Part shown: piece after piece, positions 28,093-57,702 of the stretch
Position numbering within the stretch: position 1 is the stretch's first letter
Layout of the letters: every line of letters starts with the position of its first letter
Source of the DNA: Escherichia phage slur16
Sequence record: NC_028248.1
Strand: one strand, 5' to 3'
DNA length: 64,000 nt
Made by a program: the position numbers and the translations under genes
Notes under the pieces: generated by a model
What the model was told of the DNA's origin: nothing
Database searches by the model: none
Seen by the model: only the letters and a program-made list of their open reading frames with translations

Positions 28093-29199
28093 TTAGATAA
28101 AACGCTTGAACATAGAAGGTGATGAGATTGATGGAATCACACAAGGAAGTGCTACTTCCTCTTTCTCCAGGAAATTAATAGCAGAAGCTACACAGTCAGC
28201 CCAGTCGTCTTTTCTGTTAAATGTTGATCTTTCCCCGTTGAATTTTTCAAGTTCAGTCAGAAATGCTTCCAGAGTATCAGGATGGAAACTGGATTTTACA
28301 ATCCTCACCATTCCTTGTTGGGCAAGATTGGCAAAAGGTGAGAACCTTGTCAGTTTAGATTTGTTGGAAGGCATTGGGTCTTCTTCAACCCTAAACCCTT
28401 CGGCAAGCAAGGATCTGGAGGAGGTTAAGAACTCACTCTTACCTGCCTGACCGGGGTCCACAGAGAATACGATTATACAATCATCACCATCAAACTGCGC
28501 CTGTTTCCTGATGATCACATCTCGTTCACCAGCCTTTTTACAGAACTTGCCTTCTAGACCTGTGGAATACCTCCCGTCATCCACGTTCTCAGGACAATAA
28601 TCACCGGACAGGTAATAAAAGCCGTCGCTATCTTTACTTACCTTAACACTGGCGGTAAAGTCAGGAAATTTATTACCGGAAGTTCTCTCGGTTCCTGCCT
28701 TATCCCATGCCCTGCAAGATACTGATCCAAGGGGTACTCTATCGGCATCACGAAGGAAAGATCTTTGAAAATAGTTTGCGCCCTCAGGCTTTGCAAACCA
28801 GTTACCATGAAGAAGCTGAGCTTTTTCCAGTTCCGGCAGACCTTCAAGGAAAGCAAGGTATTCTGGGTTGTCTCTTAAGCAAACAGGATTATCGAATATT
28901 GTTGCGCCTATAAACGAGAATGACAACGGTCTTGGCTTGATCTCCACACCAAGTCCGTTAACCGTGGTGTATTTCTCTATCAACTCTTCTTTAGAGTCCC
29001 CCCAGATAAATTCACCGTCGCGTCGGATAAAATATCTTTTCTTACCGCATTTCTCCGGATCTGGATACCCTTCATCGTCCAACCACCACCTAACCAGTTT
29101 GGCAAGCATGTGTTCTGAATCGGGGTTACAGCTGATAACCATTCTTGATGGATACTTTGACTGAGATCGCAGACGAGACATCAGATAGTCTATCTGCTC
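28093..29199 (-). CDS. terL: Terminase large subunit, exon 2 (nuclease domain)
   Basis: Downstream frame open from ~29214; RMVISCNPD motif-III-like segment and C-terminal nuclease-type region (GNWFAKPEG...DDWADCVA). The 5' boundary is approximate and depends on the intron 3' splice site. Confidence 0.75.
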   Translation of the reverse strand, partial: EQIDYLMSRLRSQSKYPSRMVISCNPDSEHMLAKLVRWWLDDEGYPDPEKCGKKRYFIRRDGEFIWGDSKEELIEKYTTVNGLGVEIKPRPLSFSFIGATIFDNPVCLRDNPEYLAFLEGLPELEKAQLLHGNWFAKPEGANYFQRSFLRDADRVPLGSVSCRAWDKAGTERTSGNKFPDFTASVKVSKDSDGFYYLSGDYCPENVDDGRYSTGLEGKFCKKAGERDVIIRKQAQFDGDDCIIVFSVDPGQAGKSEFLTSSRSLLAEGFRVEEDPMPSNKSKLTRFSPFANLAQQGMVRIVKSSFHPDTLEAFLTELEKFNGERSTFNRKDDWADCVASAINFLEKEEVALPCVIPSISSPSMFKRFI

Positions 29200-29533
29200 C
29201 CATTCGAATTGTGTCGTTTATGTTCGGGCAAGGTCGCTAGTCTTGCCCCGCCATTTTCAGGCAGCTGCATGTCTCCATGCAGACCAGACTATATCTTATA
29301 AGCGACAACAACCGCTTATCCTCCCGTTTCGAATCGCTTGATTCTACGTCTTTCGACTAGTCGTTGAACGTTCATCCTCTCGGATGCTTCGCTGCGGATT
29401 ATCTAAATTAACACACTGTTACCATACCTTCGATCTCTCTTCGAAGCCTCTATCATGTTACCATGACAGGTTGGTGGTATTAATAGTAAAGATTTCCCCG
29501 CAATTAGGGAGGTTTTACGAGAGCTACAAATTA
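29200..29533 (-). ncRNA. Group I self-splicing intron (ORF-less) interrupting the terminase large subunit gene
   Basis: Minus-strand RNA contains the canonical group I core elements in order: P AAUUGCGGGGAAA (plus 29503-29516), Q AAUCCGCAGC (29391-29400), R GUUCAACGACUAGUCGAAAG (29350-29371), S AAGAUAUAGUCUGG (29284-29297). Exon 1 ends ...GAU GAG GGU immediately followed by an in-frame UAA; no ORF inside. Splice junctions estimated to within ~15 nt. Confidence 0.8.
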
Positions 29534-29959
29534 ACCCTCATCGAAGCAAACCATGGTGTACTCAAGCCCTTGATGGTTAAGCTTATCTTGTACATACTCC
29601 ATGTGGCAGTATTTTACAACAGCTCCCTTTTTGCTTCTATCCCACTTGCCAGTGTTCGGATCAAACCGTGGAAAAATGAACTTATGATCCTTCTCTCTGA
29701 ACTTTGGCTTAATGTTTTCAGGCAGATCACTATAAATAGCTACCGCTTTAGGCCATAGTCCACCCTCACCTTCCAACTGCGGGGTTGTTCTTCGGAACAT
29801 AACCACAGAGCTGTGGGGGTCATCAATAATTTTAAGTGGCATCAATTGCAAGAGGAACGACTTGCCAGACCCTGCGGCACCGCCGATTACCAAAATATCT
29901 GCATCGTTTTCGAGGATCATCTTCTGCTTTTCAGAACACGGTCCGTAAATCTTAGACAT
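29534..29959 (-). CDS. terL: Terminase large subunit, exon 1 (ATPase domain)
   Basis: Walker A GGAAGSGKS and Walker B MVCFDEG; the frame is closed by a UAA that is the first codon of the intron. Confidence 0.75.
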
Positions 29960-31308: not shown

Positions 31309-31407
31309 GGTGCTAGGTGATGGAATCGAACCACCTATGTATTCAACGACTACCTCGTCTATTTTCAGGATTAAAAATCCTCGCCCTTGCCAAAGGGCTT
31401 ACCTAGC
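31309..31407 (-). tRNA. Aberrant tRNA-like element (99 nt; possible tRNA-Lys UUU derivative with ~26 extra nt)
   Basis: Perfect 7-bp acceptor pairing GCUAGGU/ACCUAGC, D-arm GCCC-UUUGGCAA-GGGC, T-arm GGUGG-UUCGAUU-CCAUC, 3' end ...ACC followed by UUUUUU (no encoded CCA). The anticodon position is a palindromic hairpin AGGAUU-UUU-AAUCCU (alternatively a 4-bp stem with UUUUUAA loop, anticodon UUU), and ~30 nt lie between it and the T-arm. Confidence 0.35.
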
Positions 31408-54506: not shown

Positions 54507-54785
54507 ATGAGCTGTGAAAAATCTTTTTTCTTTATTATTTACGGTAAAGATAACTGCCCACATTGTGTAAGAGCAAAAGAATTTGCAGTCAGTAAAGGTC
54601 TGCCTTTTGTATATAAGACACTTGGCGAGGGTTACACAAAAGAAGAGCTTATTGAGAAGTGCAGTCCAATCGTACCCAGAACGTTGCCGCAGATCTTCTT
54701 AGAAAGCAATCTTGAAAGTGTCCATATAGGCGGTGCCGACGATTTCATCTCTTTTGTTAAGAATGGTTTTGGAGAGAAAAAGTGA
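54507..54785 (+). CDS. Glutaredoxin-like protein (NrdH/Grx)
   Basis: 92 aa with CPHC redox motif (YGKDNCPHCVRAKEF), between nrdB and nrdD. Confidence 0.6.
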   Translation: MSCEKSFFFIIYGKDNCPHCVRAKEFAVSKGLPFVYKTLGEGYTKEELIEKCSPIVPRTLPQIFLESNLESVHIGGADDFISFVKNGFGEKK

Positions 54786-55642
54786 AAGTTGTAAAACGGG
54801 ACGGTAGAGAAGAGGTCTATAACGGAATTAAGGTGATCAAGGCGGCAGAGTCCGCCTTACTTGAGTCTGGACATACTGAAGAAGAAGCTTACCGGATCGC
54901 CTGTGCGGTTAATGAAGTTGTTGCTAACAATCTACCAACCGATCAGTGCACGATCTCTGTAAAAAATATCCATATCCTTGTTGAAGATGCTCTTATGGAT
55001 ATGGGTTTAAAATGTGCAGCCAGAGAATACATCCAGTATAGGCAGACAAGAGATAATAACAGAGAGGCAGGTGGAAAACTGCTTGCAGATATTAGTGGCT
55101 TCTTGGATCGCACTTGTGATGAATTTACAAAAGAAAACGCAAATAAGCCTACCAATCATGTACACACTCATCGTGACCTGCTTGCAGGCATCCTTAGCAA
55201 ACACCTTGCATCAACACAGATCCTGCCAGACCGTGTCTCAGAAGAGCACAATAAAGGCTTCATCCATGTGCATGATCTTGACTACTTGATCAGTCCGTTA
55301 ACAAACTGTTGTTTGGTAAATTATCCAGATATGTTGGAAAACGGATTCAACATTGGCAACGCCCATGTCAGTAAGCCGAAGTCAATAGGGGTTGCAACAA
55401 CAATCCTTAGCCAAATCTCTAGTGCGGTAGCTAGTGCTCAATATGGTGGTCAGACTATGAGCCATATTGATCATTATCTGGCACAGTATGCTGAAGCAAC
55501 CTATGAGAAGAACCTTAAATTTTGCCAGGAACATTGGTTGCCGGATGCTGAAACTGTTGCAATGCAAATGACAGATAAAGACGTATTTGACAGCATGCAG
55601 ACTTTGCTCTATCAAATCAATACGTTAACTTCTGTCAACGGT
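54782..55642 (+). CDS. nrdD: Anaerobic ribonucleoside-triphosphate reductase, exon 1
   Basis: GTG start with RBS; N-terminal ATP-cone-like region; frame closed by UAA immediately after ...AAC GGU, the same arrangement as the terminase intron junction. Confidence 0.75.
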
Positions 55643-56430
55643 TAACAAACTGGCCGTTGTAAAACTCTCCTAACCTCATAAGAGGGGTCGGTAAATCCGG
55701 CTAACGGGGAACGCTAAGGCGAAAGCTATGCCAATCCCGTGACTAGTTCTTACAGGAGTTGGAACGGTTGTAACGACTAACGAAAGGCAGAGATGCTTGA
55801 CAAACATTTCTGAACCAAGTAGTGTAGGGGTTAGTTGAAATACTAACTTCGAAATGGAGAGGCTCTATGAAAAAGATCATTCTTAATGGTGAAGAATCAA
55901 ACTATGTGATTGATGAAGTTGGAAACGTATACGGAAAACGTGGAATGCTGCACCCAATATTGTGGGGAGGTTATGGAAAAGGTAATAAGCATGTTAAACG
56001 CCGTTATATGTACTCTTTCAACCACAAAGGTAAAAAGATTCGAATCCAAACCTCAAGGGTTGTTGCCTTGTATTGTTTGCCAGATGTCCCAGAAGACCCT
56101 GAAAACTGGGAAGTGAATCATAAAGATGGCAATACATTGAATGATCATCCGTCTAACCTAGAGTGGGTTTTGCCGGAAGATAATAAGAGACATGCTTTCC
56201 GAACAGGACTTTGTCCAGGTAAGTGCTATAGGAAAGTGCAGGCATACAAAGGGAAAATCTTGGTGGGTGAATATCCTTCACTCTACGCCTGTGCAAAAGC
56301 CTTAAATTTGAACGTAGGTAACGTTCACAGGGCTATCGAAGGAAATGCCGAAGGTAAGCATCTCACAATAAAGGGTTATTATCTTATTGAAGTAGAGTAA
56401 GAGATAGTCTGGCCCTGTGGAAACACAGGG
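55643..56430 (+). ncRNA. Group I intron interrupting nrdD, carrying an HNH homing endonuclease ORF
   Basis: P/Q-like pair UAACGGGGAACG / AAUCCCGUG (55692-55740), R element GUAACGACUAACGAAAGG (55776-55793) and S element GAGAUAGUCUGG (56401-56412) flank the HNH ORF; nrdD frame resumes after the intron. The 3' boundary is estimated. Confidence 0.7.
55867..56400 (+). CDS. HNH homing endonuclease (intron-encoded)
   Basis: 177 aa; HNH motif EVNHKDGNTLNDHPSNLEWVLPEDNKRH; C-terminal helical DNA-binding-like segment; preceded by GGAGAGG RBS. Confidence 0.75.
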   Translation: MKKIILNGEESNYVIDEVGNVYGKRGMLHPILWGGYGKGNKHVKRRYMYSFNHKGKKIRIQTSRVVALYCLPDVPEDPENWEVNHKDGNTLNDHPSNLEWVLPEDNKRHAFRTGLCPGKCYRKVQAYKGKILVGEYPSLYACAKALNLNVGNVHRAIEGNAEGKHLTIKGYYLIEVE

Positions 56431-57702
56431 AGGAGACAGCAGACTCCATTCATCACATTGAGTTTAGGACTGGATACCTCGGTCTTTGGTAGAATGATTA
56501 CCAAAAACTACCTGAAAGTCCACAAAATGGGTCTTGGTGAAGAACGTATCACACCTGTGTTCCCTAAAGTGCTGTTCTTCCTGGAAGAGGGTGTCAACAT
56601 GAACCCTGGGGATCCTAACTATGATTTGAAACGATTAGCTCTGGAATGCTGTGCAGAACGTATCTATCCTGACTTCGTATCTGTACCACTAAATAGAAAA
56701 GTGACAGGCTCGACAGATGGCAAAGTAACTAGCATGGGTTGCAGGAGTTTTCTTAGCAAATACAATGACTTGGAAACAGGCGAGGAGAAATACCTTGGCA
56801 GATTTAACTTAGGCGTTGTTAGCCTTAACCTGCCAATGATTGCGGCAAAAGCCAAGACGGAAGGTGTTGATTTCTTTGCAGTTCTTGACGAATACTTGGA
56901 TCTTGCATACGAGGCTCACCTTGTAAGGGTTAATCGTCTAAAAGGAACAAAGGCAGGGCAGAACCCCATCATGTGGTGTGAAGGCGCTCTTGCTCGCCTG
57001 GATCCTGAAGAGAGTATTGATAAACTCTTCTATGACGGGTACGCTTCCATCAGTATTGGGTATATCGGTGTGTATGAAACCTGTCAGATTTTGGGCAGAG
57101 AGGGTGACAAGGCTTTAGCTCTTGGAATCCTTCAGCACATGAGAGATGCTTGTGAGCGATACAAGAAGGAAAGTAGACTAGCATTTAGCTTGTACGGCAC
57201 TCCTTCTGAGAGTCTATGCTATAAAGCTGCAACCTGTCTGGATCGTGAATATCCGGAAGTGTTGAAGCACGAGCATGAATATCTCACCAACAGTTTCCAT
57301 CAGCCAGTATGGATAAATAGCTCTCCTTTTGATAAGTGGGAGTATGAGGAAGGTTTTGCTATAATCTCCTCTGGTGGCAACATCGGATACGTAGAAACAC
57401 CTAACCTGAAAAACAACCTGGATGCTTTAGAGGCTCTTGTTGACTTCGGGTATAAACACATTATGTATTTTGGTATTAACCAACCTGTGGATAAATGTCT
57501 CAAGTGTGGTTTCTCTGGTGAGTTCAGTGCAACAGCTAAAGGCTTTGTATGCCCAGAGTGTGGAAACCATGAAGAGGGAACGATCAGTGTAATTCGACGT
57601 GTGTCTGGATACCTTTCCAGTCCTAACTCCCGTCCTTACAATAAAGGTAAGCAAGCGGAAGTTATCGAGCGAGTTAAGCACTACGGAAGTTGTGGTTGCT
57701 GA
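56431..57702 (+). CDS. nrdD: Anaerobic ribonucleoside-triphosphate reductase, exon 2
   Basis: Contains SMGCRS active-site cysteine motif, glycyl-radical motif RRVSGYL near the C-terminus and Zn-site CPECGNHEE; 5' boundary approximate. Confidence 0.75.
   Translation, partial: RRQQTPFITLSLGLDTSVFGRMITKNYLKVHKMGLGEERITPVFPKVLFFLEEGVNMNPGDPNYDLKRLALECCAERIYPDFVSVPLNRKVTGSTDGKVTSMGCRSFLSKYNDLETGEEKYLGRFNLGVVSLNLPMIAAKAKTEGVDFFAVLDEYLDLAYEAHLVRVNRLKGTKAGQNPIMWCEGALARLDPEESIDKLFYDGYASISIGYIGVYETCQILGREGDKALALGILQHMRDACERYKKESRLAFSLYGTPSESLCYKAATCLDREYPEVLKHEHEYLTNSFHQPVWINSSPFDKWEYEEGFAIISSGGNIGYVETPNLKNNLDALEALVDFGYKHIMYFGINQPVDKCLKCGFSGEFSATAKGFVCPECGNHEEGTISVIRRVSGYLSSPNSRPYNKGKQAEVIERVKHYGSCGC

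Follow-up and report, generated by a model that had tools for sequence, protein, structure and literature searches.

The group I intron in the large terminase subunit gene (terL) of Vequintaviruses is already known, being annotated or published for rV5 and others. Kropinski et al. (2013, Virol J 10:76; PMC3606486) describe it for rV5 in a section entitled 'Introns in terminase', in which the intron call was based on BLASTX; D. Shub is thanked for help in finding it (PMC3606486). In the RefSeq record (NC_011041), rV5 terL is annotated as a three-piece join (rv5_gp065, 'ORF64ABC') with an HNH endonuclease gene inside. Joined terL genes with a homing endonuclease inside are also annotated for rV5_ev146 and the BASEL phages, and the LL12 record carries the remark 'intron-containing gene; intron splice site predicted based on homology'. 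Group I introns are present in terL of unrelated phages as well, at insertion sites other than the one studied here: in Lactobacillus phage LL-H (Mikkonen & Alatossava 1995), in Pectobacterium phage CB7, where the intron carries an HNH gene and splicing was seen by RT-PCR (PMC7344957), and in Bastillevirinae, where splicing of the SIOphi intron was likewise seen by RT-PCR (PMC11878797). In the literature searched, we came across neither a published assay of terL intron splicing in a Vequintavirus nor RNA-level evidence of splicing for slur12 or any Vequintavirus.

The DNA analysed here is a stretch of 64,000 nt (the window, to which all coordinates refer). As judged by megablast, its segment 27500-31500 is 100% identical to Escherichia phage slur12 (LN881735), an rV5-like Vequintavirus, and has about 120 close relatives in the phage collection; a window position w corresponds to position 77771 - w of the slur12 record, on the opposite strand. 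An initial annotation, made from the sequence alone, had proposed that an ORF-less group I intron at 29200-29533 splits terL right after the Walker B motif. Exon 1 (29534..29959, minus strand) contains 142 codons, including those of Walker A (GGAAGSGKS) and Walker B (MVCFDE), as delimited by the ORF list, its translation, the Pfam Terminase_6N match and colinearity with FV3. Its reading frame ends with GGU followed by an in-frame UAA (stop codon 29533..29531, minus strand), exactly as initially described. Exon 2 (28093..29214, minus strand; 373 codons and a stop) encodes the remaining part of the ATPase domain and an RNaseH-like nuclease domain.

The boundaries of the intron were obtained by comparison with empty-site alleles. 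In FV3, terL is an uninterrupted single CDS of 1548 nt. Joined exons 1 and 2 of slur12 are equal in length (1548 nt) and differ from it by 29 nt and by none of the 515 amino acids, and the bases beside the insertion leave no sliding ambiguity between slur12 and the empty FV3 allele. The intron therefore occupies exactly 29533..29215 (minus strand, 319 nt), begins with UAA and ends with AUAAACG, its last base being the terminal G (omega G) at 29215, also placed by the helix check. The 5′ end is thus the one first proposed, while the proposed 3′ end lay 15 nt beyond the actual one and exon 2 starts at 29214 instead of around 29199. In the predicted spliced sequence, the end of exon 1 is joined to the start of exon 2 as GAGGGU|ACACAA, and the predicted protein junction, ...CFDEG|TQFEW..., is fixed to the base by the alleles compared. 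Ungapped matches to a 500-nt exon query (250 nt per exon) were obtained in FV3, PDX, Murica, nomine and others. On the intron sense strand (29533..29215), the ORF list holds no ORF of at least 60 aa, so that the slur12 copy is indeed ORF-less, and neither the list nor its translation contains a homing endonuclease ORF.

From these boundaries and from the RNA features described below, our main reading, to which we assign a probability of about 0.93, is that 29533..29215 represents a genuine group I intron, ORF-less and of the phage IA2 type, which would be spliced from a single terL pre-mRNA to give a 515-aa TerL and which would be mobile and is polymorphic in the genus. Intron 1 of rV5 terL shares the site, the length (319 nt) and the ORF-less state with the slur12 intron and is 97.2% identical to it. 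In contrast to slur12, rV5 terL is interrupted by another intron, of 979 nt and also found in HdK5, carrying an HNH_3/HTH endonuclease ORF (1897-2875 of the rV5 region examined); the corresponding site (28897..28898, minus strand) is empty in slur12, at 28898|28897, and in FV3. The three-exon rV5 product assembled from our reconstructed junctions is exactly ABI79304.1, the published rV5 TerL.

The Rfam group I covariance model (RF00028) matches the minus strand at 29543..29265 over its entire length (model 1-253 of 253), with 84.3 bits compared to a gathering threshold of 50 (E 5.5e-20), which is far beyond chance. That a group I intron splits terL, as the initial annotation had it, is borne out by this match together with the helix check, the U·G wobble at the 5′ splice site, the terminal G and, above all, gapless colinearity with the uninterrupted terL of FV3. 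The four core strings read at the outset are present verbatim and in order on the minus strand between the two ORFs: element P (29505..29493, AAUUGCGGGGAAA); element Q (29400..29391, AAUCCGCAGC), containing the P4 3′ strand UCCGCA and the start of P6; element R (29369..29358, GUUCAACGACUA...), with J6/7 and the P7 5′ strand GACUA (29362..29358); and element S (29297..29284, AAGAUAUAGUCUGG), within which 29287..29297 comprises J8/7 and the P7 3′ strand UAGUC. Within the window, AAGATATAGTC of element S has no other exact occurrence.

The remaining helices, all on the minus strand, could be placed around these elements. P1 (29519..29539) is formed by the exon sequence GAGGGU and the intron bases UA paired with the internal guide UAGCUCUC (8/8 pairs); its sixth pair, U29534·G, is a U·G wobble at the 5′ splice site, which it defines. 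The P3 5′ strand CCUCCC (29512..29507) and the P4 5′ strand UGCGGG, in element P (29502..29497), were identified both by Rfam and by the helix check, and the P3 3′ strand GGGAGG (29325..29320) by the helix check. P7.1 (GUC-GAAA-GAC) and P7.2 (GAAUC-AAGC-GAUUC) occupy 29331..29357, as found in the helix check and in an unconstrained fold; the P8 hairpin AUAAGCG/CGCUUAU (29319..29298) is the place where relatives carry an inserted ORF; and P9 (7 bp, GAGA loop), P9.1 and P9.2 form peripheral hairpins at 29226..29282 (helix check, MFE fold). P5 is AUCU/AGAU with a branched extension, and P6a has a GAGA loop. The P3-P8 core with the P3/P7 pseudoknot is thus present, with P, Q, R and S in order. Pairing is complete in P3 (6/6), P4 (6/6), P5 (4/4), P6 (2/2), P7 (5/5) and P8 (7/7), and P1, P3, P4, P5, P6, P6a, P7, P7.1, P7.2, P8, P9, P9.1 and P9.2 contain exclusively Watson-Crick or G·U pairs. 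The unconstrained MFE fold recovered most helices, including P7.1, P7.2, P9.1 and P9.2, and none of 100 shuffled sequences was as stable as the intron (z = -4.41).

Two elements deviate from this completeness. P2 is absent from the RF00028 alignment of the slur12 intron, and P10 has at most 3 bp, UGU (intron nt 6-8) with ACA (exon 2 nt 1-3); intron nt 8 is shared by P1 and P10 and is a C in LL12, where one P10 pair is lost. The predicted P10 is therefore weak, as in many phage introns. Covariation was evaluated on six ORF-less copies from different phages, which are 96-100% identical. In this set, 99.8% of cells pair in the model, compared to 32-37% with slid partners, and changes on both sides that keep the pair occurred at 52:125, 54:123 and 69:80, all in the P5 extension; the helices of the catalytic core are invariant. 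Coming from few and close sequences, this covariation is modest evidence, in agreement with the other lines.

Hairpins P7.1 and P7.2 between P7 and the P3 3′ strand, together with P9.1 and P9.2, were reportedly recognized by Michel and Westhof in 1990 as hallmarks of subgroup IA2. The predicted assignment of the intron to the phage IA2 type is based on these hairpins and on its likeness to the T4 td intron (IA2, I-TevI), which is found in a phage of the same host species. The 3′ 79 nt (S element, P9, P9.1 and P9.2) are 82% identical between the two, and P7.1 and P7.2 are present in both. The td intron likewise starts with UAA right after an exon ending in GGU. However, it interrupts thymidylate synthase instead of terL, and it has a P2 and, in P6, a GIY-YIG endonuclease gene, whereas the slur12 copy is without P2 and ORF-less. 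No similarity of the td 5′ half to the slur12 intron was detectable at the DNA level. The closest core outside Vequintaviruses was found in phiKZ-type introns (e.g. PHIKZ072.1), with about 72% identity over intron nt 130-316, a stretch that includes Q, P6, R, P7.1/7.2, P3′, S and P9-P9.2; these introns belong to another phage family, with another host and another interrupted gene.

According to the proposed mechanism, terL would be transcribed as a single pre-mRNA in which the intron would fold into the P1-P9.2 structure. Free guanosine would attack after U29534, held in the U·G wobble by the internal guide, and the freed exon-1 end would then attack after the terminal G29215, ligating the exons in frame to give the 515-aa TerL. 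Without splicing, translation would stop after 142 aa, since the intron opens with an in-frame UAA, and only this fragment would be made.

For several phage group I introns, those in terL of Bastillevirinae among them, splicing was seen in vivo but not in vitro (PMC11878797), so that autocatalysis without cofactors is not guaranteed. The slur12 intron could be a true group I intron that is spliced in vivo with the help of a protein (e.g. the RNA chaperone StpA) or of ribosome passage through exon 1. The missing P2 and the weak P10 would be in line with such a need, as would the UAA located exactly at the 5′ splice site, which would halt ribosomes at P1. In vivo, the T4 td intron is spliced more readily when its upstream exon is translated. 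Nevertheless, the slur12 core is canonical and very stable, and td, the most similar characterised intron, self-splices in vitro. We regard a cofactor requirement as unlikely.

Removal of the intron restores an intact and conserved reading frame. The joined exons (29534 to 29214) encode a 515-aa TerL with the junction ...MVCFDEG|TQFEWEQ..., and an exact-sequence look-up in the protein collection identified this product as FV3 AEZ65200.1 and as the curated TerL of DrSchubert. It has the organization of a large terminase subunit, an N-terminal ATPase with Walker A and B and a C-terminal RNaseH-like nuclease. Walker B (MVCFDE) corresponds to residues 136-141 and the junction follows G142, one codon further, so the location 'right after Walker B' proved accurate. 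Pfam Terminase_6N (PF03237, E 6e-20) covers aa 25-294 in a single stretch over the junction 142|143, and Terminase_6C (PF17289, E 2.6e-6) covers aa 394-489. The intron therefore cuts inside the ATPase domain, not between an 'ATPase' and a 'nuclease' exon. Exon 2, initially called the nuclease exon, does contain the nuclease domain (394-489), but Terminase_6N also runs into it.

These data also bear on the opposite possibility, that the intervening RNA is kept and that a 142-aa N-terminal and a 362-aa C-terminal protein form a two-piece terminase. The slur12 record and many others do annotate two separate CDS, and an ATG exists at 29181, opening an ORF that extends to 28093 (minus strand). There are also precedents: a non-splicing HNH insertion is cited in PMC7344957, and the Aeh1 NrdA, split by mobE, is reported to be a two-piece enzyme. 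However, the 33 nt upstream of this ATG encode TQFEWEQIDYL, 11 codons which are part of TerL, conserved and identical to FV3, and which would be lost. No properly spaced Shine-Dalgarno sequence precedes ATG 29181, the nearest candidate being a GGGAG 15 nt upstream, and the break would fall within Terminase_6N, halfway through the ATPase fold. The intervening RNA is moreover a complete, covariation-supported core with no degenerate helix. Altogether, a two-piece terminase appears highly improbable compared to splicing into the 515-aa protein.

To place the slur12 intron among its relatives, we considered the roughly 118 records matching the exon junction with at least 90% identity, counts which include some duplicate RefSeq/GenBank records. 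The intron is carried by 51 of them, in an ORF-less (21 records) or an ORF-bearing form (30 records); the remainder, about 67, have an empty site, which was base-exact in the 9 genomes sampled. Presence and absence thus alternate at one exact site among otherwise near-identical genomes. The ORF-less form measures 319-320 nt, is 96-100% identical among its carriers and includes the introns of rV5, LL12, naswa and JohannBauhin, the last being 100% identical to the slur12 copy.

Compared to the slur12 intron, the ORF-bearing form is 883 nt long, with an Endonuclease_7 ORF and a different P8 stem. In HdK5 and rV5_ev146 it occupies the slur12 site, and nt 1-214 and 235-319 are 98.6-100% identical to slur12; APECc02, JES2013, the BASEL phages DrSchubert and MaxBurger, and others carry it at the same site with 97.7-99% overall identity. 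The 20-nt P8 hairpin (intron nt 215-234) is swapped for 584 nt encoding a 196-aa protein with an Endonuclease_7 domain (PF02945, E 2e-21), and the longer intron has its own, entirely different, fully paired 9-bp P8 stem, GUGAAUGUG/CACAUUCAU. The stop codon (TAG) of this ORF lies inside element S, and its ribosome-binding site is likely the GGGAGG of the P3 3′ strand. At the gathering threshold, Rfam gave no match for intron 1 of HdK5 and rV5_ev146 nor for intron 2 of rV5, because the inserted ORFs break the model; these introns were mapped by BLAST with the slur12 intron as query. That the ORF-less form arose simply by deletion of the endonuclease ORF was also considered, but this was rejected, the P8 stem being entirely different and no ORF remnant being present.

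The slur12 copy is unable to mobilise itself and would persist by neutral splicing; spread could occur by recombination or through an endonuclease from a co-infecting relative. One may ask if it is a decaying relic whose endonuclease gene was deleted, which is heading for loss and has no role, splicing being merely tolerated. Gain, degeneration and loss of homing endonucleases form a classical cyclic model, and an ORF-less copy, set against 30 ORF-bearing relatives and about 67 without intron, would fit it. Against this, the P8 replacement is not that of a deletion derivative, and the ORF-less form is conserved at 96-100% in 21 records, with compensatory changes. We consider the relic reading possible but doubtful; it concerns evolutionary history only and is compatible with our main explanation, a spliced group I intron.

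Two observations were made on other records of the collection. In SYGMH1 (MW883061, 40261-40311) and JLBYU08 (OK272482, 56541-56591), a 52-nt match to the intron core (94%) covers terL intron nt 133-184, i.e. P6a, the R element and P7.1. The terL site of these phages is empty or without intron, and the match suggests a related intron in another of their genes. Separately, about 18 'Campylobacter phage' records (MG065644-MG065690, host label Campylobacter jejuni) share 98% identity with rV5-like phages of E. coli over terL, nrdD and the tRNA cluster; their host labels look doubtful.

The exon bases next to the splice site were compared by aligning 60 nt on each side in 8 intron-bearing and 10 empty alleles. 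Position -1 of the exon is T in all intron-bearing alleles (8/8) and C or A, both synonymous, in all empty ones (10/10); the terL codon at the site is accordingly GGU in the former and GGC or GGA in the latter, the empty site of FV3 reading GGC|ACG. A U is required at -1 because of the P1 wobble. At position +3, A was found in 7 of the 8 intron-bearing alleles and G in 10/10 empty alleles. Position +3 was rejected as a perfect tracker of the intron, since the intron-bearing JEP1 allele has G there. A strict association with the terL intron in these 8 + 10 alleles is thus limited to position -1. The pattern at -1 and +3 would fit exon co-conversion in the course of homing, the persistence of empty sites that are resistant, or a combination of the two.

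A further, tentative proposal, which we hold to be somewhat unlikely, is that the synonymous -1 base acts as a gate on intron spread. Empty alleles would have been selected as splice-incompatible and/or endonuclease-resistant, and the ORF-less intron would spread only by co-conversion, with the endonuclease provided in trans. If so, an intron arriving in a GGC or GGA allele without the co-converted base would lose the wobble and could not be spliced from an essential gene. The surviving empty alleles would then represent a form of immunity to intron invasion, and the endonuclease VII-like enzyme driving the spread would come from co-infecting relatives.

An unusual empty allele was noted in Escherichia phage V18 (KY683736), where 8 nt that nearly repeat TGCTTCGA are inserted about 6 nt upstream of the site. 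The insertion causes a frameshift, and terL appears in the record as two hypothetical proteins. It may reflect an error in sequencing or else a scar left by repair beside a homing-endonuclease target.

A second group I intron is present in the window. It measures 797 nt (55643..56439, plus strand) and splits nrdD, the gene of the anaerobic ribonucleotide reductase, into exons 54782-55642 and 56440-57702. In a permissive Rfam scan, 56143..56430 (plus strand) matched the group I model below threshold, with only 28.8 bits because an ORF breaks the model; this HNH-like ORF (55867..56400, plus strand) follows the P3 3′ strand. Without the intron, nrdD encodes a 707-aa NrdD colinear with the product of the uninterrupted rV5 nrdD (6 aa differences), with no boundary ambiguity. 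P1 is formed by CAACGGU/GCCGUUG and includes a U·G wobble. The first bases of the intron are UAA and its last is G, its GGU|UAA boundary being like that of the terL intron. The -1 contrast seen at terL recurs here in the single pair examined, slur12 having T at this exon position and the empty rV5 allele having G (GGG|CAA). The slur12 record lists nrdD_1, nrdD_2 and a hypothetical protein at this locus.

In phita32 (PQ758395) and several relatives, nrdD is annotated in three pieces, and the 3′ 80 nt of the terL intron match the interior of the phita32 gene at 78%; some Vequintaviruses thus carry more than one nrdD intron.

In the tRNA cluster, a 99-nt tRNA-like gene (31309..31407, minus strand) was reported by ARAGORN as tRNA-??? 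with a 4-base anticodon 'atcc', and scored 35.5 bits with the Rfam tRNA model (gathering threshold 29). Its D stem is apparently 6 bp long, its variable region is long and its anticodon loop is rich in U (AGGA-UUUUUAA-UCCU). Relatives have it annotated as tRNA-OTHER, whereas in rV5 it is unannotated.

The terL intron is unannotated in the slur12 record, where the gene appears as two separate 'Terminase-like family protein' CDS, the second of which covers only the equivalent of 28093..29142. The 142-aa exon-1 fragment is moreover recorded by itself, as a 'terminase family protein', from several hundred contigs. With terL listed as two unrelated CDS, gene callers and phylogenies using terL as a marker will therefore mis-handle such genomes. 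The intron brings little new biology, and its practical value lies in annotation. As published for rV5, production of the packaging ATPase-nuclease in slur12 would depend on RNA splicing. The three states of the terL site (empty, ORF-less and endonuclease-bearing) in about 118 near-identical genomes, together with a -1 base that tracks the intron, would make it a convenient natural system for the study of intron homing and resistance in E. coli phages.
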